Below are positions 1 to 53,464 of a stretch of DNA of 64,000 nt, piece after piece; within the stretch, counting starts at the first letter, position 1; each line of letters opens with the position of its first letter. Below the pieces are notes generated by a model. The model had not been told where the DNA came from. It saw nothing but the letters and a program-made list of their open reading frames with translations, and searched no databases. The position numbers were made by a program, and so were the translations under genes. Origin of the DNA: an uncultured Clostridia bacterium. Its GTDB lineage: Bacteria; Bacillota; Clostridia; Christensenellales; CAG-917. The stretch spans positions 74,312-138,311 of the forward strand of contig CANQNC010000001.1 in the NCBI GenBank assembly GCA_947625145.1, in the 5' to 3' direction.

Positions 1-1
1 C

Positions 2-430
2 ACGGGACAGTCGGGCTTTGCCACATCAAGGCTGACGGGGCTTACAAACGACGAATACAAACTTGTCATGGGCAAAGTGCTCGGGCAAGGCGGCTGGGGC
101 AAAAACGGCAAATGGAACGGCTGGCTTCTTCTGCCCGTTCTTTCCGTCGCGCTCAGCTTTTTGTCCACGAAGTTGCTCAGCAAAGCGCAGGGACAGCCGC
201 CCGCGGCGCCTGCGGGCGGGGGCGGAGACGCCCAAAATCAATCCATGAAGATGATGCAATGGGTCATGCCCGTGATGATGGGCGTGTTCGGATTGCTATA
301 TTCGGGCGCGTTTGCGCTGTACATGTTCACAAGCTCGCTTACGGCGATCGTGTTCCAGCTGTTGTTCAACCTTGTCGGAAGGCTGCTGGACAGATCCAAG
401 GGGAGAGCGCCGAGAGCGGCAAAAAGATAG
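2..430 (+). CDS. yidC: YidC/Oxa1-family membrane insertase, C-terminal part (5' end lies upstream of the window)
   Basis: The frame is open from base 2. Hydrophobic helices (WLLLPVLSVALSFLSTKL, MQWVMPVMMGVFGLLYSGAFALYMFTSS) are followed by a basic tail. It sits directly upstream of jag-mnmE-mnmG, the conserved Firmicute origin-region order. Confidence 0.7.
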   Translation, partial: TGQSGFATSRLTGLTNDEYKLVMGKVLGQGGWGKNGKWNGWLLLPVLSVALSFLSTKLLSKAQGQPPAAPAGGGGDAQNQSMKMMQWVMPVMMGVFGLLYSGAFALYMFTSSLTAIVFQLLFNLVGRLLDRSKGRAPRAAKR

Positions 431-466
431 GCTTTGCCGCAGTCAAAAAAGAAATTGGGAGACAAT

Positions 467-1342: not shown

Positions 1343-2647
1343 ATGAACACGATTGCCGCTATATCAACACCTATAGGCGTAGGTGGCGTCGGTATTGTGC
1401 GCGTCTCGGGCGACGAGGCGTTGCGCATAGCGGGCGCCATCTTTGATTTTGCAAACAAAAGCGCGGAGTGGCAGCCCTTGCATATGCGTTTCGGCACGTT
1501 CAAGGCAAAGGACTTTTGCGACAAGGGCTACGCGGTCTATTTCCCCGCAAAGCGCGCATACACGGGCGAGGACACCGTGGAGTTTTATCTTCACGGCGGC
1601 GTACGCATAATGCAAGGCGCACTTGACGCCATCTTGGCGCAGGGCGCGAGGCTTGCAGGCAGAGGGGAGTTTACAAAGCGCGCGTTTTTGAGCGGAAGGC
1701 TGTCTCTTGCGGACGCGGAGGGCGTGATAGACATGATCAACGCCGAGAGCGCCGCGGGTCTGCGCGCCGCGTACGCGCTGATGGACGGCAGGCTGAGCCG
1801 CGAGATAAACGCCATTTCGGACAGGCTGGAAGCCTTGATCGCGGGGCTGGAAGCCTCTCTCGATTATCCCGACGAGATGGAGGACGAGGCGCTTGCTCCT
1901 CTTTCCGACGAACTCAACGGATGCTTGGCGCATATCGACAGGCTTTTGGCGTCCGCAAGCGCGGGGCGGTTTGCAAGGCAGGGGCTGAAGGTCGCTCTGA
2001 TAGGCGCGCCCAACGTGGGCAAGTCATCGCTGTTGAATTGCATGCTGGGCAGCGATCGCGCGATCGTGGCGGACAAGGCGGGCACGACGCGCGACACCGT
2101 GGAAGCCGCCATGGAGTACAATGGCGTCAAGCTTATCTTGACGGACACCGCGGGGCTCAGAGAGAGTTCGGACGAGGTGGAAGCCGAGGGCGTGGAACGC
2201 GCAAAGCGCGCGGCGGAAAGCGCGGACGTCGTGTTGCACGTTGTGGATCGTTCTTCGCCGCAGGACATGGCGGAGATTTGGGGCAAGCCCGTGTTTGAAG
2301 TGTTCAACAAGTGCGACGTCTACGGCTTTGCCATCCCTCGCATGGCGCATGCGCACGCGGTCAGCGCAAAGACGGGAGAGGGGGTCGGAGAGTTGCTTGA
2401 CGACGTGGTCTCCTTTGCGGTCGCGGACGTCGGCGACGGCGAGCTTATTGCAAACGAAAGGCACATTTCCGCACTTTATCGTGCAAAAGACGCGCTTAAA
2501 GCCGCGATTGCGTCATCAGACCGCACAATAGATTGCATTTTGATAGACCTCAGAGAGGCGTACGACGCGCTTGGAGAGATCACGGGAAGAAGCGCGAGCG
2601 AAAGCATTGTGGACAGCGTTTTCGATCGCTTTTGCGTTGGGAAGTGA
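1343..2647 (+). CDS. mnmE: tRNA modification GTPase MnmE (TrmE)
   Basis: G1 motif GAPNVGKSSLLN, DTAGLR (G3), NKCD (G4) and the C-terminal CVGK tetrapeptide typical of MnmE. Adjacent to mnmG. Confidence 0.95.
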   Translation: MNTIAAISTPIGVGGVGIVRVSGDEALRIAGAIFDFANKSAEWQPLHMRFGTFKAKDFCDKGYAVYFPAKRAYTGEDTVEFYLHGGVRIMQGALDAILAQGARLAGRGEFTKRAFLSGRLSLADAEGVIDMINAESAAGLRAAYALMDGRLSREINAISDRLEALIAGLEASLDYPDEMEDEALAPLSDELNGCLAHIDRLLASASAGRFARQGLKVALIGAPNVGKSSLLNCMLGSDRAIVADKAGTTRDTVEAAMEYNGVKLILTDTAGLRESSDEVEAEGVERAKRAAESADVVLHVVDRSSPQDMAEIWGKPVFEVFNKCDVYGFAIPRMAHAHAVSAKTGEGVGELLDDVVSFAVADVGDGELIANERHISALYRAKDALKAAIASSDRTIDCILIDLREAYDALGEITGRSASESIVDSVFDRFCVGK

Positions 2648-2649
2648 GT

Positions 2650-4473
2650 ATGAAGGATTTCGACGTCATTGTTGTGGGCGCGGGGCATGCGGGCGTTGAA
2701 GCGGCGCTTGCGGCGGCAAGGCTGAGCATGCGCACGCTGTTGCTGTGCACCGAGGAGGGCACCGTTGCAAACATGCCCTGCAATCCGTCCATAGGCGGCA
2801 CCGCAAAGGGGCACCTCGTCAGAGAGGTGGACGCTCTCGGCGGCGAGATGGGCGTTTGCGCGGACAAGGCGTTGCTTCAAATCAAGATGCTCAACGCCAC
2901 CAAGGGTCCCGCGGTCTACTCTCTGCGCGGGCAGGAGGACAAGGGGTTGTATCACAAACTCATGCTCGCGACGCTTTCGGAGCAGGAGGGGCTTGAACTC
3001 GCGTACGACGAAGTTGTGGATCTGGACGTCGAGGACGGACGGATAGAGGGCGTGCTCGCCGCCGAGCGCGGACATATATCCTGCCGCGCGGTCGTGCTTG
3101 CGACGGGCGTTTATCTTTCAAGCTCCATCATCACGGGCGAGGAAGTGAAGCGGGAGGGCCCGAGCGGATTTTTGCCCGCGCGCAAGCTCTCGGAGGCGCT
3201 TATACGTCTGGGCTTGCCCCTCCGCCGTTTCAAGACGGGGACCCCCGCAAGGATATATCGCGACAGCATAGATTTTTCAAAGACCGAACTTCAAAGCGGC
3301 AACACCTCGGACAGGTTTTCCTTCCTCTCCGAGCATGCGGTCTTCGAGGAAGAGCCGTGCTATCTCACCTACACCAACGAGCAAACGCACGAGATCATTC
3401 GACAAAACATATCGCTCAGCCCCCTTTACAACGGGACCATCGTGGGCGTGGGCCCGCGCTATTGCCCGTCCATCGAGACGAAAGTCATGCGCTTTCCGAA
3501 CAAGACGCGGCATCAGGTGTTTATCGAGCCCGAAGGGCTTCGCAGCGAGTTGATGTACATTCAGGGCATGTCGACTTCTCTTCCCGCAAGCGTGCAGGAG
3601 CTTATGTATCGCACGATCCCGGGGCTTGAGGATTGCCGCTTCGCAAAATACGGATACGCCATAGAATACGATTGTCTGGATCCGCAAAGCCTCTATCCGT
3701 CCCTTCAAAGCAAGCTCGTCGCGGGCTTGTTCAGCGCGGGGCAGTTCAACGGCAGCAGCGGCTATGAAGAGGCGGCGGCGCAGGGGATAATCGCGGGCAT
3801 AAACGCCGCGGCAAGTTGCAAGTGTAGGCCTCCCTTGATCTTGGGCAGGGACGAGGCGTACATAGGGGTGCTGATAGACGATCTTGTCACAAAAGGCACG
3901 CTCGAGCCCTATCGCATGATGACCGCCCGCGCGGAACACCGCATCATGCTCAGGCAGGACAACGCGGACATGAGGCTTACGCCGATCGGATACGAGATAG
4001 GACTTGCAAGCGAAAAGAGATATCGCCGCATGCTCGAAAAAAAAGAGGAGATCGCGCGCGTGCTCGCGCACAGGGACGACGTTGTGCGCGCGGACTGTCT
4101 GTTGCGCTCGATCGGCGAGGAGCCGAAGCCCGTCACCATAGCGCAATTGTGCCGTCGTCCGCAGGTCTCGGCGGCGGACATCAAGCCTCTTTTGCCCTTC
4201 GAGGCGGAGGACGAGGCGCTCGAGGCGGCGGTCATAGAGCTGAAATACGAGGGTTACCTCGAAAAGGAAAAGGCGGCGGTCAGGGAACAGCGGCGGTTGG
4301 AGGAAAAGCCCATCCCCGCGGACTTCGATTACGGCTCCGTCCACGCGCTACGCGCGGAGGCGATCGAAAAGCTGTCCGCGATCCGTCCCCTTTCGCTCGG
4401 ACAGGCGTCGAGGATCTCGGGAGTTTCCCCCGCGGATATTGCGGTTTTGATCGTCGCGTTGCGCGCGAATTGA
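2650..4473 (+). CDS. mnmG: tRNA uridine 5-carboxymethylaminomethyl modification enzyme MnmG (GidA)
   Basis: FAD-binding N-terminus MKDFDVIVVGAGHAGVEAA, GPRYCPSIE motif, ~607 aa. The start is taken at the ATG at 2650, 2 nt after the mnmE stop; the track start at 2533 overlaps mnmE. Confidence 0.95.
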   Translation: MKDFDVIVVGAGHAGVEAALAAARLSMRTLLLCTEEGTVANMPCNPSIGGTAKGHLVREVDALGGEMGVCADKALLQIKMLNATKGPAVYSLRGQEDKGLYHKLMLATLSEQEGLELAYDEVVDLDVEDGRIEGVLAAERGHISCRAVVLATGVYLSSSIITGEEVKREGPSGFLPARKLSEALIRLGLPLRRFKTGTPARIYRDSIDFSKTELQSGNTSDRFSFLSEHAVFEEEPCYLTYTNEQTHEIIRQNISLSPLYNGTIVGVGPRYCPSIETKVMRFPNKTRHQVFIEPEGLRSELMYIQGMSTSLPASVQELMYRTIPGLEDCRFAKYGYAIEYDCLDPQSLYPSLQSKLVAGLFSAGQFNGSSGYEEAAAQGIIAGINAAASCKCRPPLILGRDEAYIGVLIDDLVTKGTLEPYRMMTARAEHRIMLRQDNADMRLTPIGYEIGLASEKRYRRMLEKKEEIARVLAHRDDVVRADCLLRSIGEEPKPVTIAQLCRRPQVSAADIKPLLPFEAEDEALEAAVIELKYEGYLEKEKAAVREQRRLEEKPIPADFDYGSVHALRAEAIEKLSAIRPLSLGQASRISGVSPADIAVLIVALRAN

Positions 4474-4663: not shown

Positions 4664-5407
4664 TTATGCCGACTCCAACAACAGCTTGTCCGCGATCAGC
4701 GCGATGAACTCGCCGTTTGTCGGCTTTTCGTTCGGCGAGTAGACTTTGATGCCGAAGATGTTGTTGATGTTTTCTATTTTGCCTCTGCTCCACGCGACCT
4801 CTATCGCGTGGCGAATGGCACGTTCCACCTTTGACGGCGAGGTCTGATAGCGTTCGGCGATCCCGGGATACAGCCGCTTTGTGATGGAGTTGATGATGTC
4901 CGGGGTCTCGATGGTCATTTTGATCGCTTCGCGCAGGAATTGATAGCCTTTTATGTGCGCGGGGATGCCCACGGAGATGAACAGATTTGCGATCTTTTCG
5001 TCAAGCGAGCGGTTGCGCTTTTGGGACGCGGGCCTTTCCGCGGGTTTGGGAGAGGAAAGTTCGTCAAACAGCTTCGGGAGCATTTCGAAGTCAAAGGGCT
5101 TTGCGAGGAAATAGCTCGCGCCGTATTGCATGGCCTTTTGCACGAAGCCGTCCGTGGCAAGCTGGGACATCATCACCACAAGCGTGCGTTTGTTTTCAAG
5201 CGCGCTCAGCACTCCGAATCCGTCAAGCTCGGGCATCACGATGTCAAGCAGCAGGAAGTCGGGCTTGAATTCGTCCACAAGTTCAAGCGCCTTCACGCCG
5301 TTTTGAGCGACGCCGACGACCTCGTATCCCTCTTTTTGCAAGAAGAACTGTTTCAGGCTGTCGGCAAGAGCGATATTATCATCTGCTATAATTAGTGTTT
5401 TTGGCAT
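4664..5407 (-). CDS. spo0A: Sporulation master regulator Spo0A
   Basis: Receiver domain (LLLDIVMPELDG) plus the Spo0A-specific DNA-binding signature SVGIPAHIKGYQFLREAI and ...SKVERAIRHAIEVAW. GGAGG lies 7 nt upstream of the ATG at 5407. Confidence 0.95.
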   Translation of the reverse strand: MPKTLIIADDNIALADSLKQFFLQKEGYEVVGVAQNGVKALELVDEFKPDFLLLDIVMPELDGFGVLSALENKRTLVVMMSQLATDGFVQKAMQYGASYFLAKPFDFEMLPKLFDELSSPKPAERPASQKRNRSLDEKIANLFISVGIPAHIKGYQFLREAIKMTIETPDIINSITKRLYPGIAERYQTSPSKVERAIRHAIEVAWSRGKIENINNIFGIKVYSPNEKPTNGEFIALIADKLLLESA

Positions 5408-5756
5408 AAATTCCTCCGTTTTATGCAAATATAATATCAAAATTTTTGAATTCCGCTAATGGGAAATTTCCACGCAATATGTGGCCTTTTGTCGCATTTT
5501 ATTCGCTTATGTCTTATTTGGATTTGTTGATACAAAACACCCCAAAATGTCTTGTTTGCGGACATTTTATATCAGTCTATGCGGATTTTCAAACATTATT
5601 TTCACAAATTTTTTCCAACACCACATATTGCCGTCTGTTTGAGATAACCATACAAAATAGGGCCCAAATGAATTTTTTTTGTAAAAAAGCAAAAAATCAG
5701 TTTACAGAATGGTATTCTATCAATATAATATATGAAAAATAAGCAAGAGGTTTTTT

Positions 5757-19530: not shown

Positions 19531-20646
19531 ATGAAAAACCATACAATGAGCGTATTGTTCACATCCGACGCGGAAAATCATCTCAACGATCTGACGATCC
19601 ACCGCACAACGGCGTCCCTCCCGTTCGGAGGCAGATACAGGCTGATAGACTTTGCTTTGAGCAACCTCGTGCACGCCAACATCACCACCATAGGCATTGT
19701 CACGCGCAACAACTACAACTCTCTCATGGACCACATTCGCATGGGCAGAGATTGGGACCTCAACAGGAAAAACAGCGGCATCACGGTGTTCCCGCCCTTC
19801 GTTTTCAACGCGGCGCACGAGGTGTACAAGGGCAAGATAGAGGCGCTGTACACTCTGCGCGGTTTCATGATGGACGCAAGCGAGGAGTACGTCGTCATCG
19901 CCAACACAAACATTGCGTTCAACCTTGACTTCGAGGCGGTGGAGGCTTTCCACATCGAAAAGGGCGCGGACATCACCGTGCTCACTTACAATACAGACGA
20001 CACCAACCCGCGCAAGATCATTATCAGCAAGGACAAAAACAACCGCATCACGGACATGCGTCATCCCGTCGCAAGCGACGCGGGCAAACAGCTTTGCAAC
20101 CTCAACATATACTTCATCAAAAAGGACCTTCTCATTTCCCTCGTGGACAACGCGTACGCGCACGGCGCCTACGATTTTGAAAAGGATATCCTTCAAAAGA
20201 AGTTGGACGAGCTGTATATCATGAACTACGAAGTCAAGGACTACGTCGCGGTGATCGACCGCATCCCCTCCTACTTCAAGCACAGCATGGAACTTCTTGA
20301 CCCCGAAGTGCGCGAGGCGCTGTTCTACAAGCACTCCACCATCCTCACCAAGGTCAAGGACAGCGTGCCCACCAAGTACAAAGAGGGCGCCAACGTCAAA
20401 AACTCCATTATCGCAGACGGCTGTGTGATAGACGGCACCGTGGAAAATTCCATTCTTTTCCGTTCCGTCAAGGTCGGCAAAGGCGCGGTCATTCGCAACT
20501 CCATCGTCATGGAGGACTCCATCATCATGGACGGCGCGTCCCTCAACTACACCATCACCGACAAGGACGTCATCATCCAATCGGGCAGGACGCTCAGCGG
20601 GTATGAGTCGTATCCTATGGTGGTGGTCAAAGGCAAAGTCATCTAA
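19531..20646 (+). CDS. glgD: Glucose-1-phosphate adenylyltransferase regulatory subunit GlgD
   Basis: GlgC paralogue lacking the GGxGxRL loop (FGGRYRLIDFALSN). GGAGGG lies upstream of the ATG at 19531. Firmicute-type glgCD pair. Confidence 0.9.
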   Translation: MKNHTMSVLFTSDAENHLNDLTIHRTTASLPFGGRYRLIDFALSNLVHANITTIGIVTRNNYNSLMDHIRMGRDWDLNRKNSGITVFPPFVFNAAHEVYKGKIEALYTLRGFMMDASEEYVVIANTNIAFNLDFEAVEAFHIEKGADITVLTYNTDDTNPRKIIISKDKNNRITDMRHPVASDAGKQLCNLNIYFIKKDLLISLVDNAYAHGAYDFEKDILQKKLDELYIMNYEVKDYVAVIDRIPSYFKHSMELLDPEVREALFYKHSTILTKVKDSVPTKYKEGANVKNSIIADGCVIDGTVENSILFRSVKVGKGAVIRNSIVMEDSIIMDGASLNYTITDKDVIIQSGRTLSGYESYPMVVVKGKVI

Positions 20647-20650
20647 GTCT

Positions 20651-20774
20651 AAACCGCACTATTTGGCGCTATGCGGCGTCAACAGTCCTATCTCTCGCCG
20701 TCATGTACTACATGTACATTAGGCGGCTCGTGCTAGGCTTGTTTCCTTGCCTAGCGTCCAAATATTGCGGTTTA
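20651..20774. repeat. Long imperfect hairpin repeat, copy 1 (after glgD)
   Basis: AAACCGCACTATTTGGCGCTATGC...CTCGCCGTCATGTAC-TACA-TGTACATTAGGCGGCTCG...GCGTCCAAATATTGCGGTTT. Same family as the copies at 37672, 50058 and 50367. Confidence 0.85.
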
Positions 20775-21170
20775 GAAGGAGCCTTATCGTATGTAAGGTT
20801 TAAGTCCAACTGTGTGGCGCTATGCTGTGTCAGCGGGGGCGACCGACGATGTGTGCACGATCTGCATTTAGGCGGTCAATCGCGCTCTGTTTCCTTGCAT
20901 AGCATCCAAATATTGCGGTTTAGAAGGAACCTTATCATGTGTAAGGTCTAAGTCCAACTGTTTGGCGCTATGCGGCGTCAACGGGCGAGGCTGACGACGT
21001 GAGCACAATCTGCATTTAGGCAGTCAATCGCGCTCTGCTTCTTTGCTTAGCATCAGATGCGGTTAAAAGCCTAACCATGTGTGGGGGCTAAGTCAAAACG
21101 TGTGGCGCAATGCGGCGTCAAAGGGCGAGGCGGCGGCGCAAGAATTTGCCGTCGGCGCGCTTGCGCAAAG
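20775..21170. repeat. About three degenerate tandem units (142-148 bp) derived from the hairpin repeat
   Basis: Anchor GAAGGA(G/A)CCTTATC at 20775 and 20923, with a diverged AAAAGCCTAACC at about 21065. Each unit carries GGCGCTATGC...GCATTTAGGC(G/A)GTCAATCGCGCTCTG...GCATC. Confidence 0.75.
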
Positions 21171-22666: not shown

Positions 22667-22702
22667 ATAAAAAATCGTAAAATAAAATACAGCGTTTTGA
22701 AT

Positions 22703-22732
22703 AAAACAGCGAGGAATTTGCCTCGCTGTTTT
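22703..22732. terminator. Bidirectional rho-independent terminator between glgA and the convergent membrane-protein gene
   Basis: AAAA-CAGCGAGG-AATTTG-CCTCGCTG-TTTT. Confidence 0.8.
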
Positions 22733-22762
22733 ATTCAAACATAAGCAAACAATGCGTTTGAA

Positions 22763-33122: not shown

Positions 33123-33135
33123 GTTCGCCGATATA

Positions 33136-33165
33136 AAAGAGCGACCGAGCGGTCGCTCTTTTATA
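33136..33165 (+). terminator. Rho-independent terminator
   Basis: AGAGCGACC-GAGC-GGTCGCTCT followed by TTT. Confidence 0.75.
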
Positions 33166-33198
33166 TTTGATTTGTTTGCGCCGCAAAGCCTATTAGCG

Positions 33199-36137: not shown

Positions 36138-37673
36138 ATGAACACTCAACCAAATCAAACCGTAGTTGTGCTCGACTTCGGCGGGCAGTACAAGGAGCTC
36201 ATCGCAAGGCGGGTCAGGGAGTGCGGCGTGCATTCGCAGATCCTGTCAGGCAACACTCCTCTCGAAACGCTCAGAGAGATAGCTCCCATAGGCGTAATCT
36301 TGACGGGCGGACCGCACAGCGTCTATGACGAAACTTCTCCTCACACCGTCAAGGAGCTGTTCGAGCTTGGGATCCCCGTCCTCGGCATTTGCTACGGCAT
36401 GCAACTTATGGCGTACACTCTCGGCGGCGTGGTGAGATCCTGCGCGGTCAGCGAGTTCGGCGCCATTCCCTGTCGCTACGACGATCCCGATTGCAAGATC
36501 TTCAAGGGGCTTGACCCGAACGCCGTCACGCTTATGAGTCACAACGACTATGTTGACGTCCTTCCAAAAGGGTTCAGGCGCGTCGCCCACACCGCGGATT
36601 GCCCTACGGCAGCCATGTGCGACGAGGATAGACGCCTCTATGCCGTGCAATTTCATCCCGAGGTGGAGCGCACTCAGCAGGGCACGCAACTGCTTCGCAA
36701 CTTCCTTTACAACGTGTGCGGGGCAAAGGGCGATTACAACATAAACGACGTCATTCAAAGGCAGATCGGCCTCATACGCGAGCAGGTCGGCACGCACAAC
36801 GTCGTGCTTGGTCTCAGCGGAGGCGTGGACAGTTCGGTCTGCGCGGCGATTTTGGAACGCGCCATACCAAATCAACTCACCTGCATTTTCGTCGATCACG
36901 GCATGATGCGCAAAAACGAGGGGGACGAGATAGAGCGCGCGTTTGCGGGCAAATCTCTCAACTTCATTCGCGTTGACGCGAAAGAACGTTTCCTCTCCAA
37001 ACTCAAAGGCGTCACCGAGCCCGAAAAAAAGCGCAAGATCATAGGCGAGGAGTTCGTCCGCGTCTTTGAAGAGGAAAGCGGCAAGTTTGCGGGCTCTTTC
37101 CTGGCGCAGGGCACGATTTATCCCGACGTCGTGGAAAGCGGCTTGACCACGGGCGCGGTCATAAAATCCCACCACAACGTGGGCGGATTGCCAAAGGACA
37201 CCAAATTCATAGGGCTTGTCGAGCCTCTTCGCTATCTCTTCAAAGACGAGGTACGCGCGCTTGGCAGGCGTCTCGGACTTGACGAGGCGCTCGTGGCCCG
37301 TCAGCCCTTCCCCGGCCCCGGGCTTGCCGTCCGTTGCATCGGCGAGATCACTGTCGAGCGGTTGGACATCCTCCGCGACGCGGACTATATCTTCCGCGAG
37401 GAGCTCGCCAAGGCGGACTTGCACTACGACCAATTCTTCGCCGTGCTCACCGACATGCGCACGGTCGGCGTCATGGGCGACGGCAGGACCTACAACTATG
37501 TCCTCGCCCTTCGCGCCGTCATCACCTCCGACTTCATGACTTGCGAGTACGCGCATATTCCCTACTCCGTCCTCGACGTCGTATCTTCACGCATCGTCAA
37601 CGAGGTGAAGGGGGTTTCGAGGGTGGTGTATGATGTGACGGGGAAGCCGCCTGCCACCATCGAATGGGAGTAA
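36138..37673 (+). CDS. guaA: GMP synthase (glutamine-hydrolysing) GuaA
   Basis: GATase (GICYGMQ), PP-loop GLSGGVDSS, C-terminal PPATIEWE. Start at MNTQPNQTVVVLDFGGQY. Confidence 0.95.
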   Translation: MNTQPNQTVVVLDFGGQYKELIARRVRECGVHSQILSGNTPLETLREIAPIGVILTGGPHSVYDETSPHTVKELFELGIPVLGICYGMQLMAYTLGGVVRSCAVSEFGAIPCRYDDPDCKIFKGLDPNAVTLMSHNDYVDVLPKGFRRVAHTADCPTAAMCDEDRRLYAVQFHPEVERTQQGTQLLRNFLYNVCGAKGDYNINDVIQRQIGLIREQVGTHNVVLGLSGGVDSSVCAAILERAIPNQLTCIFVDHGMMRKNEGDEIERAFAGKSLNFIRVDAKERFLSKLKGVTEPEKKRKIIGEEFVRVFEEESGKFAGSFLAQGTIYPDVVESGLTTGAVIKSHHNVGGLPKDTKFIGLVEPLRYLFKDEVRALGRRLGLDEALVARQPFPGPGLAVRCIGEITVERLDILRDADYIFREELAKADLHYDQFFAVLTDMRTVGVMGDGRTYNYVLALRAVITSDFMTCEYAHIPYSVLDVVSSRIVNEVKGVSRVVYDVTGKPPATIEWE

Positions 37674-37796
37674 AACCGCGCTATTTGGCGCTATGCGTTG
37701 TCAACAGCCCTCTCCCTCGCCGTCGTGTACTTCATGTACACTAGGCGCCTCGGGAGAGGGTTGTTTCCTAGCCTAGCATCCAAATATCGCGGTTTT
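37672..37796. repeat. Long imperfect hairpin repeat, copy 2 (starts inside the guaA TAA stop)
   Basis: AAAACCGCGCTATTTGG...CAGCCCTCTCCCTCGCCGTCGTGTAC-TTCA-TGTACACTAGGCGCCTCGGGAGAGGGTTG...CCAAATATCGCGGTTTT, followed by a T-rich tract. Confidence 0.9.
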
Positions 37797-37940
37797 ACTT
37801 TATTTATTTTTTGTCTGTTAGGGCGAAATACTGCGTCAAAGCCCTATTTATAATATGAGAGCTTGTACGAGTGCTTACTCGGGGTCCCCATCAAAACGCG
37901 TAGCGTTTTCATTGGATGGATATAAATATCACCGTTTTAC
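37797..37940. repeat. Second repeat module (B) followed by a remnant duplicate of the hairpin 3' arm
   Basis: GGGCGAAATACTGCGTCAAAGCCC...CCCCATCAAAACGCGTAGCGTTTTCATTGG matches 50183-50328. It ends with AAATATCACCGTTTTAC, compared with AAATATCGCGGTTTTAC at 37782-37798. Confidence 0.75.
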
Positions 37941-38361
37941 CTTTCATTATCTTTTGATAGGGTCACCACGTATCCTCTCGCCGCACTGTTTGACGTTGTG
38001 TTTTGTCAACTGTTCTGTTTTACTGTTGCTTGATAAGTGCGCGTGGCGGTGTTTTTTGTGTTGAGCGTTTTTCCGAAAGTGATTTTTCCATTGATCGCAT
38101 GACGAGAGAGGAGGGATTTGTGACAAAAAGCGGGAGAAATGGGCTTCTAAAGCGGTGGAAAGAAAAGAGGCGATTAGAATGTCGATTTACGGTTTTTGGC
38201 GGGGTTTCGGAAGAAATTAAATGCACGAATTTGTTCACGTTTCAACATTTTGCAGGCGCAAAATCAACAAATTTGCACAAAAACTTTTTGAGGGAGCGCA
38301 AGATTTGTAATGAAATTTTTGAGTTTTTCAAAAAATTTTCAAAAAAACTTACAAAAAGTGC

Positions 38362-39274: not shown

Positions 39275-39652
39275 TTCGCGTTTCGGCGTTGCCGTACGCT
39301 TTCGCCGCTTTTAGGTTGCCGCAAGGGCGAAAACCTTCCGCATTTGCGATACAAGCGATCGTACAAATTTGTTTGCATATATCTTTTCGCTTGATTAAAT
39401 ATCCATATCCGTATTTATCGCGCGTATGACGCGCGCTTGTGGACAAGACCTCATTCCGCTGTACAGACAGATTGCGGTTTTCGCGCATGAGGAGCGTTGT
39501 TGTTCCATTTGTCAAACAGACACATAACTTACATTTAGCGCGTATGAAGCGCGCGATATCGTTTTTTCCGTCAAAAACAAACCCAAAACATTTTGCGCGT
39601 ATTAGGCGGGGAGGGGCGTCGGATTTACGGAATATCCGAATGCGGGACAGAT

Positions 39653-47659: not shown

Positions 47660-47908
47660 AAAACTCCTCCTTATTATTGTCCTCTTCGCATTTATTATAC
47701 CCCCATGGCGTATATTGTCAAGTGTCTGAAAAAAATTAGAAAACAAAAATTTTCAAAAATTATAAATATGCATTTTTTGCGGGAAGCAAACGCCTTTGAA
47801 TTGAATTGTTGCGAATAATTATGTGCATAATTTTGGATATTTATGAATAAAACATACATTTTTGTTTATAAAACGCAAATTTTGTTTCAAAATTATACAT
47901 TCAATCGA

Positions 47909-47938
47909 TTGACAACGGTTTTCGGACGGTGCTATACT
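47909..47938 (+). promoter_or_regulatory. Sigma-A-type promoter of the glutamine synthetase gene
   Basis: TTGACA, 18-bp spacer, TATACT. Confidence 0.55.
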
Positions 47939-47971
47939 CCTCGCATTGAAAATTGTTTTCGGAGGTGTATT

Positions 47972-50059
47972 ATGACGTCTGTCAACTCGATTTTCGGCTC
48001 GATGGTGTTCGGCGACGATGTTATGAAGGAGAGGCTCCCCAAAGAGACCTACGTTGCTCTGCAACAGACCATCAAAAGCGGCGCCGCTCTCGACATTTCC
48101 ATTGCAAACGTGGTCGCAAGCGCGATGAAGGAATGGGCGATCGGCAAGGGCGCTACGCATTATACGCATTGGTTCCAGCCCATGACGGGCATCACCGCGG
48201 AAAAACACGACAGCTTCATCGCTCCCGCGGAGGGCGGCAAGGCTATCATGGAGTTTTCGGGCAAGACCCTTGTCAAGGGCGAACCCGACGCAAGCTCCTT
48301 CCCAAGCGGCGGGCTCAGGGCGACCTTCGAGGCGAGAGGTTACACGGCGTGGGATCCCACGTCCTACGCCTTTGTCAAGGACGGATGCCTCTATATCCCC
48401 ACCGCGTTTTGCTCGTACGGCGGGCAGGCGCTCGACAAAAAGACGCCTCTTTTGAGGTCCATGGAAGCGATCAATCGGCAGGCGCTCAGAGTGCTCAGGC
48501 TGTTCGGCAACACCGAAGCGCAAGCTGTCCGCACCACAGTCGGCCCCGAGCAGGAATATTTCCTCATAGACAAGGCGATGTACGACAGGCGCAGGGACCT
48601 CATCTACACGGGCAGGACGCTGTTCGGCGCGCGCGCTCCCAAGGGGCAGGAGATGGAGGACCATTATTTCGGCGCGATCAAGCCCCGCGTCAAGGCGTTC
48701 ATGCAGGAGCTTGACGAGGAGCTTTGGAAGGTCGGCGTTCTCGCCAAAACCGAGCACAATGAAGTCGCGCCCGCTCAGCACGAGCTTGCGCCCATCTTCA
48801 CGACGACCAATATCGCGTGCGATCACAATCAGCTGACAATGGAGCTGTTGAAAAACGTCGCCGCGCGCCACGGAATGGTATGCTTGCTTCACGAAAAACC
48901 CTTCGACGGCGTAAACGGCAGCGGCAAGCACAACAATTGGTCCATATCCACGGATACGGGCGTAAATCTGTTGGAGCCGGGGGATACCCCCGCGGACAAC
49001 GCGCAATTTTTGCTGTTTTTGACAGCGGTCATAAAGGCGGTCGACGAATATCAGGATCTGCTCAGGATCTCCGTCGCTTCCGCGGGCAACGATCACCGCT
49101 TGGGCGCAAACGAGGCGCCTCCCGCGATAGTGTCCATGTTTTTGGGGGACGAGCTTGACGGCGTGCTGACCGCCATAGAAAAAGGCGCCGCCTACGACGG
49201 CACAAAGCGCGGAAGCCTCGCGATCGGGGCGGACGTACTGCCCAAGCTGCCGAAGGACTCAACCGACCGAAACCGCACTTCACCGTTTGCTTTTACGGGC
49301 AACAAGTTCGAGTTCCGCATGTTGGGCTCCTCGGAATCCATCGCCTGCGCAAACATCATGCTCAACACCGCGGTCGCGGAAGCGCTGAGTTGTTTCGCGG
49401 ACGAGCTTGAGGGCGCAAAGGATTTCTCCGTCGCGCTCAACAAGCTGATAAGGCGCGAGATAAGCGCTCATCGCCGCATCATCTTCAACGGCAACGGCTA
49501 CAACGACGAGTGGGTCGCGGAGGCAGAGCGCAGAGGTCTTTTGAACCTCCGCACGACTCCCGACTGCCTCACGCACTATATGGATCCAAAAAACGTGCGT
49601 CTGTTCGAAAAGCACGGCGTGTTCACCGAGCAGGAGATGGCGGCGCGCCATGACATTATCCTCGAAAATTACTCAAAGACTCTCCTCATAGAGGCGCGCA
49701 CCATGGTGGATATGGCGACAAGGGACTATCTGCCCGCCGTCACCGCGTATGCGGGCAAACTCGCCGCCGACGTCAACGCGATCATGGCGCTCGGCGTCAA
49801 TGTCGAGGACAAAAAGGCGCTCATCGCCCGCTTGTGCGAGCTGTCCTCTTTGGCGTACGCCGACCTCGACGTCCTCTCCGCCGCGATCTCCCGCGTCGAA
49901 GCGATCTCCGACGTCACCGAGCGCGCCTTCATCGCCAAGGACGCCCTCCTTCCCGCCATGCAAACTCTCCGCTCTCACATCGACTCGCTCGAGGTCATCA
50001 CCTCACGTGAGGCGTGGGGGGTGCCGGGGTATGGGGATATGCTTTTCTCCGTCCGTTAA
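47972..50059 (+). CDS. glnA: Glutamine synthetase, type III
   Basis: 695 aa, the GSIII size class. [13 protein letters not shown] and N-terminal [17 protein letters not shown] are typical of GlnN-type enzymes. Confidence 0.85.
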
Positions 50060-50182
50060 AACCGCCTGTACGGGCGAATAGCTGCGTCAAGGGGGTTTGC
50101 CCTCGCCGTCATGTGCTAAGTGTACATTAGGCGCCTCGGGCAAACCCCCTTTCCTTGCTCTTCATCCCGTACAGGCGGTTTT
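50058..50182. repeat. Long imperfect hairpin repeat, copy 3 (starts inside the glnA TAA stop)
   Basis: AAAACCGCCTGTACGGG...AAGGGGGTTTGCCCTCGCCGTCATGTGC-TAAG-TGTACATTAGGCGCCTCGGGCAAACCCCCTT...CCCGTACAGGCGGTTTT. The arms differ from copy 2 but remain complementary. Confidence 0.9.
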
Positions 50183-50362
50183 AACTTATATATTTTTGTG
50201 GTTTCGGGCGAAATACTGCATCAAAGCTCACGTTTTAATATGATAGCTTGTGCGAGAGTTTCCCCGGGGCCCCCATCAAAACATGCAATGTTTTCATGGG
50301 GTGGGATTAGGCAGTTCTCCAAATGGGCTTTTCCTTGTCTTTCATCCCGTACAGACGGTTTT
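50183..50362. repeat. Module B copy followed by a direct duplicate of the copy-3 3' arm
   Basis: GGGCGAAATACTGCATCAAAGC...CCCCATCAAAACATGCAATGTTTTCATGGGG, then TTTCCTTGTCTTTCATCCCGTACAGACGGTTTT. Compare TTTCCTTGCTCTTCATCCCGTACAGGCGGTTTT at about 50150-50182. Confidence 0.8.
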
Positions 50363-50366
50363 ACGT

Positions 50367-50491
50367 AAAACGGCACTATTTGGCGCTATGCGTCGTCAAC
50401 AGCCATCTCCCTCGCCGTCGTGTACTTCATGTACACTAGGCGGTTCGGGAGAGGGCTGTTTCCTAGCCTAGCATCCAAATATCGCGGTTTT
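50367..50491. repeat. Long imperfect hairpin repeat, copy 4
   Basis: AAAACGGCACTATTTGGCGCTATGCGTCGTCAACAGCCATCTCCCTCGCCGTCGTGTACTTCATGTACACTAGGCGGTTCGGGAGAGGGCTG...CCAAATATCGCGGTTTT. Nearly identical to copy 2. Confidence 0.9.
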
Positions 50492-50692
50492 AATTTATAT
50501 ATTTTTATGGTTTCGGATAGGGCTTTCCCTTGCGCTAAAGATGGACGATTTATTAGAATAATATAAAAACCATCTCCTATGCCGCCTCACAGTTGTTGAC
50601 TTTTTCGTGTGAAGTAGTAAAATTTGAGGGGATAATGTTCATGGATCGGGTCGATCGATGAACTAAATTATTGTCGAGCGAGGGGTTTTGGC

Positions 50693-53464
50693 ATGAAAAA
50701 GAATTTTTTGAAGGTGTTTATCGTCACATTGTTTGTCGTCGTGCTTGCGGCGGCGCTTGTCGCTTGCAACGGCGGGGACAACGCGTCCGACAAAAAACCG
50801 TCGGGCGGAGGAAATCACGAAGAAGAACCGACTTCAAATGTGTTGACGGACGCGCAAATGGAGGACATGTTCGATTTGACGCTTGACGAAAAAGGATACG
50901 CGATCGGCAGATACATGGGATCCGTTGCCGACCTCGCTCTCCCTTCCACGTACAAAAACAAGCCGATCTACGCCATTGGGCAAGGAACGTTTAAGGATTG
51001 CGCGGTCTTGACGTCGATCGCGATTCCCGACAGCGTGCAAATCATAGGCGTAAAGGCGTTTTCGGGTTGTACGGGATTGAGGGAGATTATCGTCCCCGGC
51101 AGCGTGACAGACATTGGGGCGTACGCGTTCTTCGGGTGCGTCGGGTTGCGTACGGTGACGCTGTGCGAGGGCGTCAAAACCATAGCGCAGGACGCATTTT
51201 CCAACTGCTATGGATTGATGGAGATAGTTGTCCCCGAAAGCGTGAAAACAATAAGTTTCTCGTCGTTTGGAAACACCTACAAACTTGTGCATATACGCAA
51301 TCTGAGCGGCGCGGAGATATCGTCTCCCGCAACGGACGGCGAAGTTTTGACCTCGGCAAGCGCGGAGTTCAAAAACAAACTTGAAAAAGACGAGCACGGC
51401 ATTTGGACATACACCGTGGGCGAAAAGGTGTATGCCATTGATTATGAGGGGAAAGACGCAAATATTGATTTTTCATTGAACGACAAGATCAACACAATCT
51501 ATCCGAATGCATTTTATGAGCGTACGGATATAGAGTCCGTCGTCATTCCCGGCAATGTGAAAAACATATATGAGTATGCATTCGGGGGCTGTACGGGCTT
51601 GAGGACGGCGACGATAGGCGACGGAGTCTACTTTGTGGGAATGAATTTGTTTTCTCATTGCGTCAACTTGACTCAAATATACATCCCCGACAGCGTGCAA
51701 TTGATAAGCAACAACTCGTTCGAATATTGCAACAAACTTGTGCACATACGCAATCTGAGCGGTGTTGAAATATCTTCTCCCGCGGCGATAGGCGGTGAGG
51801 TCGTGACATCTGCGGACGAAGAGTTTCAAAACAAGCTCGAAAAGGACGAAAACGGCGTTTTGACATACACGGTCGGAAGTACGGTGTATGCGATCGGCAG
51901 TGATGGAACAAGCTCGAACATTTCATTGAACGGAAAGGTCAACGCAATTTATCCTTATGCCTTTTATAGGCACAACGAGTTGAAGGAGATCACGATACCC
52001 GAGGGTGTGCGATCCATAGGCAATTGTGCCTTCGATGGTTGCAACGAATTGCAAACCGTCAATTGGAACGCGGCGGATTGTGCAAGCTCGTACGCCTTCT
52101 TTGACAATTGCCCGCGACTTATGACCGTGAACATAGGCAACGGCGTGCAAAATATCCCCGCATACACATTCGAGGGTTGCGAGGAGTTGCGGACCGTGAC
52201 GATCGCCGTCGGTGTGAACAGCATAGGCGACAACGCTTTCAGCGGATGCCGAAATTTGACGGAGATAACCATTCCCGCAAGCGTGCAAAGCGTAGGAGAG
52301 GCGTTTGTCAACTGCCCCAAACTTGTGCACATACGCAATCTGAGCGGCGTTGAAATATCGTCTCCCGCAACGGACGGCGAAGTCTTGACCTCGGCGAACG
52401 CGGAGTTCCAAAACAAAATCGAAAAGGACGCGAACGGCATTTGGACATACGCCGTGGGCGACAAGGTTTACGTTTTCGGTTATGAAGGGACAAATTCGAC
52501 ATTGACTCTCGGCAGTGAGATCAACGCTATTTATCCGTATGCGTTCTACGAGTGCGCGGGTTTGAAGAAGATAGATTTTTCTGACGGCATCACAATCATT
52601 GGCGCGCACGCATTCGAGGGTTGCGCGGGCTTGAGAGAGATCGCCGTCCCCGTCCACGTGGAAACCATCGGGGACAGCGCGTTCAGAGATTGCACGCGTT
52701 TGAAGAAGGTCAACTGGAACGCGACGAATTGCATGACGGCGGGCAGCGAACACTATTTCATTTTTGAAAGGTGCGCGCAGCTTGAAACCGTCAATTTCGG
52801 TGCAAGCGTACAGATCATTCCCTCATATGCGTTCGAGGAGCGCTTGGGATTGAAAGAGATACTTATTCCCGACAGCGTAAAAACCATAGAAGGGTATGCG
52901 TTTGTCGATTGCGCAAACTTGCAGACGGTGACTATAGGCAAGGGCGTTGAAAGCATAGGAGAGGGAGCGTTTTACAATTGCTCAAGTTTGAGCGCGATAA
53001 CGATCCCCGAAAAAGTGACCGCCATTGCAGACAAGACGTTCTATTATTGCAAAAAGTTGACGGAAATAACCATTCCCGACAATGTGAAAACCATAGGAAA
53101 GGAAGCGTTTGCATATGCGGCTTTGCGGACAGTGACGATAGAGGACGGTGTGGAAAGCATAGGCGAGAGCGCGTTCTTGTATTGCACGGGGTTGAGGGAG
53201 ATCATCATTCCCGCAAGCGTGCAAACCATAGGCGGCGCGGCATTCAATTTTTGCACAGCAATGCAGATGGTGTATTATGGAGGCACAAGCGAGGATTGGG
53301 ACGAGATCTCGATAGGAAGTCCCGACGGATATTTGATCGGCGTAGAGCGCAGTTATTTCCGCGCGCAGGATCCGTATCAAAACGACACGGCGGCGGACGG
53401 CGAAGCATATTGGCATTGGGACGAGGACCATTCCGCGCCCGAAATGTGGGTCAAGCAGGATTGA
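50693..53464 (+). CDS. Surface lipoprotein with BspA-type leucine-rich repeats
   Basis: Signal peptide plus lipobox (LAAALVAC). More than 25 repeats of the pattern I.IP.SV..IG..AF..C..L. Confidence 0.85.
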   Translation: MKKNFLKVFIVTLFVVVLAAALVACNGGDNASDKKPSGGGNHEEEPTSNVLTDAQMEDMFDLTLDEKGYAIGRYMGSVADLALPSTYKNKPIYAIGQGTFKDCAVLTSIAIPDSVQIIGVKAFSGCTGLREIIVPGSVTDIGAYAFFGCVGLRTVTLCEGVKTIAQDAFSNCYGLMEIVVPESVKTISFSSFGNTYKLVHIRNLSGAEISSPATDGEVLTSASAEFKNKLEKDEHGIWTYTVGEKVYAIDYEGKDANIDFSLNDKINTIYPNAFYERTDIESVVIPGNVKNIYEYAFGGCTGLRTATIGDGVYFVGMNLFSHCVNLTQIYIPDSVQLISNNSFEYCNKLVHIRNLSGVEISSPAAIGGEVVTSADEEFQNKLEKDENGVLTYTVGSTVYAIGSDGTSSNISLNGKVNAIYPYAFYRHNELKEITIPEGVRSIGNCAFDGCNELQTVNWNAADCASSYAFFDNCPRLMTVNIGNGVQNIPAYTFEGCEELRTVTIAVGVNSIGDNAFSGCRNLTEITIPASVQSVGEAFVNCPKLVHIRNLSGVEISSPATDGEVLTSANAEFQNKIEKDANGIWTYAVGDKVYVFGYEGTNSTLTLGSEINAIYPYAFYECAGLKKIDFSDGITIIGAHAFEGCAGLREIAVPVHVETIGDSAFRDCTRLKKVNWNATNCMTAGSEHYFIFERCAQLETVNFGASVQIIPSYAFEERLGLKEILIPDSVKTIEGYAFVDCANLQTVTIGKGVESIGEGAFYNCSSLSAITIPEKVTAIADKTFYYCKKLTEITIPDNVKTIGKEAFAYAALRTVTIEDGVESIGESAFLYCTGLREIIIPASVQTIGGAAFNFCTAMQMVYYGGTSEDWDEISIGSPDGYLIGVERSYFRAQDPYQNDTAADGEAYWHWDEDHSAPEMWVKQD
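51281..52475 (+). repeat. Three intragenic super-repeats within the LRR gene
   Basis: About 155-bp near-identical blocks start at 51281, 51734 and 52319 (AAACTTGTGCA(T/C)ATACGCAATCTGAGCGG...). They encode KLVHIRNLSG.EISSPA..GEV.TSA..EF.NK.EKD..G..TY.VG..VY. Confidence 0.85.

Follow-up and report, generated by a model that had tools for sequence, protein, structure and literature searches.

The window, the 64-kb stretch of DNA that was analysed, belongs to a poorly studied group of gut Clostridia known from metagenomes only. It contains four full copies of a long hairpin repeat, and the neighbours of the copies are housekeeping genes in conserved synteny. The genes and repeat units discussed here are the following (positions are those of the window).

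19531..20646, + strand, glgD-like gene, upstream of the copy at 20648
20648..20776, + strand, full copy inside the glgC-glgD-glgA cluster, without a U-rich tail (z -7.6)
20786..21131, + strand, two degenerate tandem units (period 148) and a left-part remnant (39-43 and 19-21 bits)
36138..37673, + strand, guaA (GMP synthase)
37670..37798, + strand, full copy with outer stem type A and apex type 1 (-68.8 kcal/mol, z -10.3; 140 bits)
37799..37811, + strand, T-rich tail (ACTTTATTTATTT...) of the 37670 copy; the repeat family reaches 37811
37808..37945, + strand, copy of a second repeat family directly 3' of the 37670 hairpin, 79% identical to 50193-50304
47843..50059, + strand, type III glutamine synthetase (GSIII) gene, start not refined
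50056..50184, + strand, full copy with outer stem type B (-77.7 kcal/mol, z -11.6)
50190..50364, + strand, chimeric copy (33 bits)
50365..50493, + strand, full copy, the second of a tandem pair (z -8.4)

The repeat family in the window

The original prediction placed full copies at 20651-20774, 37672-37796, 50058-50182 and 50367-50491, and all four are present there. A repeat search of the window groups them into one family of 142 nt, in which identity to the 37670 copy is 64-94%. The window holds further relatives beyond these four, namely the degenerate units and remnant at 20786-21131 and the chimera at 50190-50364. The degenerate units keep the family loop motifs and the right arm, but their apex has diverged and they fold poorly (z +0.6). 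The chimeric copy retains the left loop motif of the family and a type B right arm, and its core is replaced or interrupted by the second repeat family (a GGGGYCCCC hairpin). The density of full copies is four per 64 kb in the window and four per 21.5 kb in one of the related metagenomic loci (L023; related loci are designated here by L numbers).

Two of the copies do start inside a stop codon, as had been noticed before: the first bases of the 37670 copy are the TAA of guaA, and the 50056 copy begins in the TAA of GSIII. The 20648 copy begins 4-5 nt after the TAA of glgD and lies between glgD and glgA. At guaA, the inverted-repeat arms (37669-37688 and 37780-37799) enclose the TAA together with the last two bases of the final codon. 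At GSIII, the final codon in the window is CGT followed by TAA, while two element-free relatives have CAC or CAT followed by TGA. An inverted-repeat search found perfect 20-bp and 14-bp helices in the 50056 copy. The 50365 copy, which is not beside a stop codon, matches the 37670 copy at 94% identity, and three of its pairs are broken without compensation. T-rich sequence had been proposed to follow all of the copies, but the copy at 20651 lacks it (GCGGTTTAGAAGGAGCC). Behind guaA, the T-rich tail at 37799..37811 is part of the repeated unit and is common to the copies at 50056 and 50365.

Fold, covariation and conserved positions

Each of the four window copies forms one long imperfect hairpin, as predicted, with folding energies of -56.5 to -77.7 kcal/mol and z-scores of -7.5 to -11.6; none of 200 shuffles folds as well. 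Folding the opposite strand, or folding with DNA energy parameters, leads to the same outcome. The element consists of four nested helices with about 46 pairs in approximately 125-130 nt, and its G+C content is 46-55%. The outer stem is closed by AAAAC.../...GTTTT and leads into a short middle stem in which a T.C mismatch recurs. Next comes an asymmetric internal loop, with GTCAA and TTTCCTTG on its two sides. The inner stem beyond this loop measures 12-14 bp and is hypervariable, and it carries an apical hairpin of the form GTC-NN-GTAC-loop-GTAC.

We aligned 14 distinct copies, comprising the four window copies and ten from related metagenomic contigs. All full copies fold far better than shuffles, and their dot-bracket layouts are nearly identical despite little shared sequence. 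In the alignment, 94.1% of the pair cells are paired, compared with 34-46% when the partners are slid and 69% in shuffles. Changes on both sides occur in 38 of the 46 pairs, and none of 500 shuffles reaches the observed values. A smaller set of ten copies gives the same outcome. The arm covariation is therefore real and strong, and the arm pairs quoted in the original prediction are correct. The arms indeed differ between copies and stay complementary, but stepwise compensatory substitution is not the sole source of this pattern: whole interior modules are exchanged between copies, so that both arms move together, which contributes part of it. The copies have their asymmetric loops, a 2-nt bulge and mismatches in common, for which reason we rejected a snap-back origin with the second arm templated by the first.

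The proposed sequence conservation of the apex holds among the window copies and within one subfamily, but not family-wide, since at least three apex types exist elsewhere. The near-invariant positions of the family are GTC-NN-GTAC...GTAC and the unpaired internal-loop and bulge motifs (C after GG, GTCAA, TTT.CT.G and TCATC), and the positions of mismatches, bulges and loop bases are themselves conserved between copies. The best conserved stem is the outermost one, AAAAC(C)GC/GC(G)GTTTT. On the transcribed strand, G.U pairs outnumber A.C pairs 12 to 4, an excess that is not significant (p = 0.08). Termination does not require the near-invariant unpaired nucleotides or the GTAC apex; both point to recognition by some protein.

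That the element could not be assigned to a named family agrees with our searches, as Rfam 15 gave no match at gathering thresholds over the whole window. By E-value, only sub-threshold miRNA-precursor models, which are generic hairpins, overlap the window copies, and at the four copies in L023 there is no Rfam match at all. Searches of plasmid and phage collections (blastn, distant mode) and of viral contigs (three pattern scans) were likewise negative. The exact apex pattern occurs in 3 of 185,579 representative genomes, once in each, and at one locus in a metagenome collection. The carriers are a clade of uncultured spore-forming gut Clostridia, and the family seems to be old and of low copy number, in contrast to the high-copy REP families. 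With respect to enzymes, Pfam detected no Y1_Tnp or other transposase, integrase or recombinase domain among 39 window proteins, including the main predicted genes, and the called genes of the related loci contain no transposase, integrase or recombinase domain.

Gene ends and turnover among relatives

At eight of ten independent loci, the element starts 0-5 nt from, or overlaps, the stop codon of a co-oriented upstream gene. These upstream genes are guaA, GSIII, glgD, a 313-aa gene, a rubredoxin-domain gene, a ferredoxin gene, rpsR and a 229-aa gene. One of the eight copies is on the minus strand and fills the 136-nt spacer of a convergent gene pair. It lies 4 kb from plus-strand copies, so that orientation is separated from the direction of replication. 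The L002 copy lies in a repeat-rich spacer, with no co-oriented gene ahead of it. At guaA, the last sense codon is within the helix and covaries with the far end, as GAG...CTC in L023 and GAA...TTC in L004. A coding or read-through role was rejected: the frame after guaA stays open for about 55 codons, but in the GSIII copy a stop comes after 19, and stems this variable could not encode a conserved peptide. A promoter within the element was also rejected, as a minus-strand TTGAC has no -10 partner and the region 37500-38100 contains no promoter-like sites.

The occupancy of gene ends differs among relatives. Behind guaA, the element is present in the window, L004, L016, L020 and L023; L024 and L025 have it in decayed form, and L005, L010, L013, L014 and L026 lack it. 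The GSIII end is filled in the window only, among the relatives compared. In these filled/empty comparisons, no pair is close enough to fix the exact ends of the element; the GuaA closest to that of the window is 86% identical. The carriers at the guaA site are not monophyletic on a neighbour-joining tree of GuaA. L004 and L023 share 95% identity in GuaA and 44 of 45 positions in the downstream flank, but identity between their guaA hairpins is only about 62%, and the L004 guaA copy is nearer to an L023 copy at another locus than to the L023 guaA copy. Plain vertical inheritance of the guaA copy was rejected on these grounds, namely the non-monophyletic carriers and the different copies that close genomes have at this site. 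Between L001 and L005, the outer part of the element is common (92%) and the interior is not (60%). We also found tandem, half, nested and core-deleted derivatives. Three assemblies all break inside the element, and the family, if the reading favoured below is right, would explain the recurring contig breaks at gene ends in assemblies of these Clostridia.

After guaA, the hairpin is roughly complementary in distribution to ordinary terminators. Where guaA carries the hairpin, no ordinary terminator lies within 300 nt in the window or in L016, and L004 and L023 have weak small hairpins only, 160-210 nt downstream. An ordinary terminator is present at the hairpin-less guaA ends of L010, L014 and L026, as well as at those of L024 and L025, where only a left-arm remnant is left. 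As for the other hairpin-less guaA ends, L013 has a weak hairpin only and L005 has none. The element itself has terminator-like ends, with a G+C-rich basal helix (CCGCG/CGCGG), an A-run before it and, after most copies, 3-6 U. The U-runs are weak in several copies (L002 and the guaA copies of L004 and L023). A simple terminator scan makes no call on the element because the loop is far too long. Thus, the terminator role suggested in the original prediction is plausible from the A-run, the G+C-rich stem and the U-run, together with the distribution after guaA, although the T-rich tail is not found in every copy.

Function, mobility and relation to known repeats

The family is real and unnamed, and looks like one more family of the already known terminator-like interspersed repeats. 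We lean towards reading it as a lineage-specific repeat of this kind, which serves as an mRNA terminator or 3'-end hairpin and is renewed by recombination or by some mobility mechanism. The element would take the place of an intrinsic terminator right behind the stop codon and would be transcribed as the 3' end of the upstream mRNA. The hairpin with its U-run could then end transcription, from both sides where it lies between convergent genes, and/or cap the 3' end of the mRNA against exonucleases. At the DNA level, the copies may exchange by gene conversion or same-site re-insertion with swapping of modules, which would provide for both upkeep and spread, with an occasional gain at a new gene end. 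The data above show the family itself, with its fold, covariation, position, orientation, turnover and rough complementarity to ordinary terminators; the terminating or stabilising function and the manner of spread are what we infer. Several points count against this reading. With multiple helices and about 50 bp, the hairpin far exceeds a typical terminator in size, the U-runs of several copies are weak, the L002 copy has no co-oriented gene ahead of it, and the conserved unpaired nucleotides and the GTAC apex are superfluous for termination. In addition, the ribosome in Escherichia coli represses a terminator that is placed a few bases past a stop codon, so that abutment on the stop codon is not obviously good for a plain terminator (PMC4824070). 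If the favoured reading is true, the family is a well-defined, covariation-backed addition to a small set of terminator-like interspersed repeats. Its covariance model is usable for annotating gene 3' ends in these genomes, and its copies provide a natural hairpin series for studying the replacement of a terminator at a fixed site. The consistent start at stop codons is the one feature that could lead further, as it makes an interaction between the terminating ribosome and a terminator hairpin testable.

Both options of the original prediction, a REP/MITE-like element or a structured RNA, are still apt. The element may be a purely selfish, non-autonomous mobile element (MITE or REPIN-like) moved by a transposase encoded elsewhere, for example an HUH/Y1 enzyme that reads a folded single strand or a TA-targeting enzyme of the IS630 type. 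The hairpin and the loop nucleotides would then be kept for the enzyme, and gene ends would be the places where insertion is tolerated. We consider this unlikely, even though the filled and empty sites among relatives (GSIII in the window only, guaA in non-monophyletic lineages), the replacement at a fixed site and the module chimeras are of the kind expected from it, as are the tandem, nested and half copies in repeat-rich spacers shared with the second repeat family and the contig breaks within the element. Moreover, DNA sites that are recognised by their structure are known to combine conserved unpaired bases with covarying stems. A T...A flank, present at most copies, is compatible with TA duplication, but it is inseparable from an extension of the palindrome by one pair, and the 3' tail is itself repeated in three window copies. 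Tolerance of insertion does not account for the starts at 0-5 nt from stop codons at eight of ten loci, nor for copies that strictly follow the direction of their upstream gene on either strand of a single contig. The lack of a transposase domain among the 39 window proteins and the called genes of related loci, the seemingly low copy number, and the age and divergence of the copies within one genome, at 64-86% identity in the window, also argue against a purely selfish element. A recombination site that is read as folded DNA, such as an integron attC or a Xer/dif-like site, is highly improbable. The element shares with attC sites an imperfectly palindromic form, a similar size, a place right after a stop codon, conserved extrahelical bases and a structure conserved more than the sequence, and it has AAC...GTT near its ends. 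The core sites of attC are RYYYAAC (R'') and GTTRRRY (R'), and these do not match the ends of the element, which are GTAAAAC and GTTTTAC, or GTTTAGA. Furthermore, the apex is the most conserved part here and the variable part in attC, the neighbours are syntenic housekeeping genes rather than cassettes, and no integrase or recombinase domain was found among the scanned window proteins or related loci. Core sites and gene context together led us to reject the integron attC reading.

Another explanation, to which we give as little weight as to the selfish one, is that the element is primarily a dedicated cis-acting structured RNA of the 3'-UTR with a specific protein partner, its repeat-like spread being secondary. 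It might act as a translation-gated terminator, in which a ribosome at the stop codon would cover 12-15 nt at the start of the 5' arm and obstruct the basal helix, making read-through dependent on how closely translation trails transcription. Alternatively, it might be a processing site for RNase III or another enzyme that sets the amount of the upstream protein or mRNA. The strict abutment on stop codons with co-orientation, the last guaA sense codon that covaries with the far end of the helix in L023 and L004, and the conserved mismatch, bulge and loop bases fit such an RNA, as does the glgD-glgA copy without a U-tail; ribosomes are also known to repress terminators near stop codons (PMC4824070). 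The G.U to A.C ratio of 12 to 4 on the transcribed strand (p = 0.08) points in the same direction, but the excess is not significant and both strands fold equally well. The upstream genes (guaA, GSIII, glgD, rpsR, ferredoxin and others) have no common function, several relatives manage without the element at the same gene, and copies that are degenerate or chimeric have been retained. Reportedly, transcription is not coupled to translation in Bacillus, which also counts against this explanation. A bolder version, and a less probable one still, is that the element is more than a repeat co-opted for termination and represents a distinct class of structured 3'-end RNA, with the 5' arm under the terminating ribosome and the loops and GUAC apex bound by a specific protein, so that termination, processing or ribosome release is translation-gated at the ends of housekeeping genes. 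The copying of the whole module, including the stop codon, between gene ends would then make it a portable cassette of a stop codon plus a gated terminator.

On the favoured reading of a terminator-like interspersed repeat, the closest in kind would be the pneumococcal SPRITE, and also the REP or Correia elements. SPRITE is present in about 30 copies in Streptococcus pneumoniae, has AAAA/TTTT ends and a long duplex with a U-rich tract, and lies near gene 3' ends; no transposase partner, target duplication or matching IS is known for it (PMC3049150). Our family resembles it as a low-copy interspersed Firmicute repeat with AAAA...TTTT ends and a duplex of unusual length that runs into a U-rich tract, which is found near gene 3' ends and between convergent genes, clusters and nests with other repeat families, and is suspected of co-option as a terminator (PMC3049150). 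The SPRITE-type features found here are the ends, the long duplex, the U-run of 3-6 after most copies and the position at a stop codon at eight of ten loci. SPRITE, however, is AT-rich with 28% G+C and has an 18-bp duplex with a tail (PMC3049150), compared with 46-55% G+C and four helices here. The conserved internal-loop motifs, the apical hairpin and the start in or within 5 nt of a stop codon also set our family apart. Given these differences in base composition and architecture, homology to SPRITE is unlikely, and the two were compared by description only.

The REP, BIME and REPIN sequences are likewise extragenic palindromes behind genes that are co-transcribed, keep their hairpin by compensatory change and may be recognised by proteins as folded single strands (PMC5581495). 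REPs are 20-40 nt long with a conserved 5' tetranucleotide, occur as single units or inverted doublets, number in the hundreds, and lie around one RAYT gene (PMC5581495). Here, one continuous hairpin of about 125-130 nt is found in apparently low copy, with AAAAC/GTTTT ends instead of a GTAG-type head, and no Y1 transposase was seen in the 64-kb window or the related loci. The Correia/NEMIS elements of Neisseria and the ERIC elements of enterobacteria are similar in size (100-160 bp) and form long mRNA hairpins, often at gene 3' ends, which undergo RNase III processing or alter mRNA stability and can terminate transcription; Correia elements sit in TA (PMC10969869, PMC2229807). The terminal repeats of these elements are defined and 26 bp long, the TA duplication is clear, and copies number in the hundreds and lie in either orientation (PMC10969869, PMC2229807), whereas in our family the TA is inseparable from the palindrome, the copies are oriented like the gene upstream of them and the interior stems are hypervariable. 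Terminal inverted repeats of the MITE type are present only trivially, because the whole element is palindromic, and the DNA analysed contains no parent IS element whose ends match. Ordinary intrinsic terminators share the A-run, G+C-rich stem and U-run behind a stop codon, bidirectional action and the upkeep of pairing by compensatory change, but they have stems of 5-14 bp and small loops and are not homologous between genes (PMC5381666). The copies described here are paralogous, five times longer and equipped with conserved unpaired motifs. Two copies also contain ACCGCACT, a look-alike of the Haemophilus uptake signal, which we take as a coincidence.

The hairpin repeat family and its fold

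We found one 142-nt repeat family in the window, comprising four copies with 64-94% identity to the copy starting at 37670. The full copies and their relatives are as follows.

20648-20776, plus strand: full copy starting 4-5 nt past the glgD TAA
37670-37798, plus strand: full copy starting inside the guaA TAA stop codon
50056-50184, plus strand: full copy starting inside the TAA stop codon of the type III glutamine synthetase (GSIII) gene
50365-50493, plus strand: full copy, second of a tandem pair, not at a stop codon
20786-21131, glgD-glgA spacer: two degenerate tandem units and a remnant, with a period of 148
50190-50364: chimeric copy, from repeat comparison and the covariance model

The original prediction had placed four copies of a single family at these sites, starting inside the TAA of guaA and GSIII and about 5 nt past the glgD stop, and this is borne out; its count is right for full copies, to which the tandem units, the remnant and the chimera are to be added. 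The upstream gene identities were confirmed by Pfam. As also predicted, every copy folds into a single long imperfect hairpin in single-strand folding (-56.5 to -77.7 kcal/mol, z -7.5 to -11.6); 0/200 shuffles fold as well as the real copies, and the outcome is the same on the reverse strand and with DNA parameters.

Exact matches to the apex pattern were found in three rabbit-gut 'uncultured Clostridia' MAG contigs and one metagenome contig. A covariance model built from these copies, and later rebuilt, was run on related contigs (designated L) fetched via GuaA homologues, the best of which is 86% identical to the GuaA of the window. It detected additional full copies in L004 (two), L005, L016-L019 and L023 (four) and copies truncated at contig ends in L020-L022, with no matches in L009-L015 and L024-L026. 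In total, 10 independent loci hold 14 distinct full copies. No match was obtained in Rfam, plasmids, phages or viral contigs, in agreement with the earlier statement that the repeats could not be assigned to a named family; no relative is detectable in Rfam, and no name for the family was found. The family is real, its status as a structured repeat is well supported, and it is unnamed.

All copies, even those with little shared sequence, have a common architecture.

Outer stem: ~17 bp including a single mismatch or bulge; closing sequence AAAAC(C)GC/GC(G)GTTTT
Unpaired C: between the outer and middle stems
Middle stem: ~7 bp, in which a T.C mismatch recurs
Asymmetric internal loop: 5' side ..GTC, 3' side T.CT.
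Inner stem: 12-14 bp, with a flanking A-run and T-run
Apical part: four pairs, then unpaired GTC, then a stem of six pairs on GTAC...GTAC
2-nt bulge: within the 3'-side TCATC

Standard pairs make up 94.1% of pair cells in the 14 copies, compared with 34-46% when partners are slid by 1-3 columns and 69% in column shuffles. Both sides have changed in 38 of the 46 pairs, and the observed values are reached by 0/500 shuffles; fitting the alignment to the model biases it towards the structure, but independent single-sequence folds nevertheless agree. Near-invariant letters are mostly the unpaired ones and those of the GTAC stem. The apex as a whole, which had been described as conserved in sequence, varies: eight copies have one type (CGCCGTCATGTAC...GTACATTAGGCG), four have another (GGTCACGTAC...GTACGCTCA), L016 has a third, and the guaA copy of L023 is intermediate. 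An excess of G.T over A.C pairs on the strand shown (12 vs 4, p = 0.08) gives a weak hint as to which strand folds. An unrelated imperfect palindrome of ~140 nt (39416-39558; 22-nt arms, 77% complementary) lies in non-coding sequence preceding the SipL-domain gene.

Stop codons and orientation

We then investigated the positions of the copies. At 8 of the 10 independent loci, the hairpin starts 0-5 nt from, or overlaps, the stop codon of a same-strand upstream gene.

guaA: window, L004, L016, L020, L023
GSIII and glgD: window
313-aa gene: L001, L003, L005
Rubredoxin-domain gene: its last five codons lie within the 5' arm
Small ferredoxin, rpsR and 229-aa genes

Such positions make up roughly 1-2% of intergenic positions by our own estimate, so this share is far beyond chance. 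The exceptions are the 50365 copy and an L002 copy in a 1.4-kb repeat-rich spacer. All window copies are on the plus strand, and the window alone cannot separate gene orientation from replication direction. The copy behind the 229-aa gene shares the minus strand with that gene. It occupies the entire 136-nt spacer between two convergent genes, with plus-strand copies just 4 kb away; orientation thus tracks the upstream gene, not replication direction. The window opens with jag-mnmE-mnmG (1-4473 and 4664-5440 region), genes that usually adjoin the replication origin; the region is therefore probably origin-proximal, with the plus strand leading. It also encodes Spo0A and a SipL-domain protein, indicating a spore-forming Firmicute.

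The stop codon is TAA at seven of the eight stop-adjacent loci, compared with about 45% of the window's other genes. All guaA genes ending with a hairpin or left-arm remnant have TAA (window 37671-37673), while four of the five ends without any trace have TGA (L005, L010, L013, L014) and one has TAA (L026). GSIII likewise has TAA with the element (window 50057-50059) and TGA in two element-less relatives; its last residue is Arg (CGT) in the window and His in those relatives. The element appears to supply, or to fix, its own stop codon.

Replacement in place and repeat dynamics

The carriers of a guaA copy are not monophyletic in a neighbour-joining tree of GuaA. In L004 and L023, GuaA is 95% identical and the downstream flank matches at 44/45 positions, but the guaA hairpins are only about 62% identical. 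The guaA hairpin of L004 resembles the one behind the L023 229-aa gene (78% outer, 71% inner) more than it resembles the guaA hairpin of L023 (64% outer, 51% inner). Behind the same gene in L001 and L005, outer parts are 92% and interiors 60% identical, and the apex types differ. These comparisons indicate that copies are replaced or converted in place and that interior modules move as a unit. Both arms then stay complementary automatically. The predicted complementarity of differing arms is genuine, and this movement accounts for some of the covariation between copies. What is unusual about the family is its abutment on stop codons and its replacement in place. In the young 37670/50365 pair (94% identical), the copy that does not adjoin a gene has three uncompensated disruptions, which fits relaxed constraint on it.

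Repeat dynamics are also visible in tandem arrays, half copies and nesting with a second repeat family. Reduced derivatives indicate that modules are separable and can be lost or recombined independently.

L005 2408-2465: core-deleted mini-hairpin (outer stem only)
L002 about 5016-5070: left arm and inner stem closed by a tetraloop, apex gone
L001 5790-5850: isolated right half with an inner-stem arm that matches the L005 copy

In one species, three independent assemblies stop within the conserved apex, 71 nt beyond the guaA stop (L020 11537-11607, L021 9547-9617, L022 5274-5344); L020 also has a short left-arm duplication. The repeat evidently disrupts short-read assemblies.

The second repeat family lies immediately beside, or nested in, hairpin copies (window 37808-37945, 50193-50364; L002 4893-5012, 5150-5290, 5700-5800; L005 2465-2690, 11820-12260) and is abundant in rabbit-gut MAG contigs; both orientations occur. 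Its motif is TTGT(A/C)YGAG(N)G followed by a small hairpin, GGGG(T/C)CCCC-A.CAAAA...TTTTG.GGGG. A BspA-type leucine-rich-repeat protein (50693-53464; 923 aa, 7 LRR_5 stretches) has internal DNA repeats with a 69-nt period and longer duplications of 450-580 nt. Each tandem unit in the glgD-glgA spacer (20774-20800, 20921-20950, 21060-21095) contains a Shine-Dalgarno-like AGAAGGAG, followed after 9 nt by an ATG-TAA start-stop mini-ORF or an ORF of 4-5 codons; the arrangement could be fortuitous or could signal re-initiation upstream of glgA.

Possible termination and alternative explanations

The hairpin is roughly complementary in distribution to short terminators, which were called by a scan, and by eye where it missed A/T-extended stems. 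No ordinary terminator occurs within 300 nt after guaA in the window or L016, both with a full hairpin, and L004 and L023, which also carry one, have only weak small hairpins 160-210 nt downstream. Without the element, L010, L014 and L026 have a short G+C-rich terminator 6-40 nt past TGA or TAA, L013 has only a weak hairpin and L005 has none. L024 and L025 have a left-arm remnant at the guaA TAA and then an ordinary terminator. The hairpin base (A-run, CCGCG stem, U-run) resembles the window's short terminators (for example, 22696-22739 and 33131-33166). T-rich sequence had been predicted after all copies; the glgD copy (at 20651 in that prediction), the only one inside an operon-like cluster (glgD-glgA), lacks such a tail. 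A terminator or 3'-end role is thus supported indirectly.

On balance, we favour a terminator-like interspersed repeat, with some reserve. We infer that the element would form the 3' end of the upstream transcript, its hairpin and U-run ending transcription and/or protecting that end, and that copy exchange, with occasional gain, would renew and spread it at the DNA level. Termination alone leaves the conserved unpaired bases and the GTAC apex unexplained, which is the main ground for keeping other explanations. One is a purely selfish MITE or REPIN-like element, which we consider rather unlikely. A dedicated protein-recognised 3'-UTR RNA, such as a ribosome-gated terminator, has a similarly small chance of being correct. 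In E. coli, ribosomes reportedly stall at REP hairpins lying no more than about 15 nt from a stop codon. In the same species, the ribosome represses a terminator placed a few bases past a stop codon (PMC4824070); by analogy, a hairpin with its 5' arm under the terminating ribosome could be translation-regulated. A folded-DNA recombination site is highly improbable.

The closest described analogue of the favoured terminator-like repeat is SPRITE of S. pneumoniae, with about 30 copies, AAAA/TTTT ends and an over-long duplex with a U-rich tract; it is found near the 3' ends of genes and between convergent ones, clusters with other repeats, and has no duplication or IS partner (PMC3049150). REP/REPIN, Correia and ERIC share the idea of a co-transcribed hairpin, but are set apart by their size, copy number, ends and rules of orientation. 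Compensatory evolution is documented for ordinary terminators (PMC5381666). The present family adds an unnamed instance to an already described sort of terminator-like interspersed repeat. Identity with attC was rejected, as core sites and gene context do not match.

Downstream of the guaA hairpin in L004 (3215-3310, minus strand) and L023 (11672-11800), we also found short repeats that terminate in CAAACATCATTT and each contain a small hairpin. There are two units in L004 and four in L023, and the sequence flanking them is nearly identical between the two.
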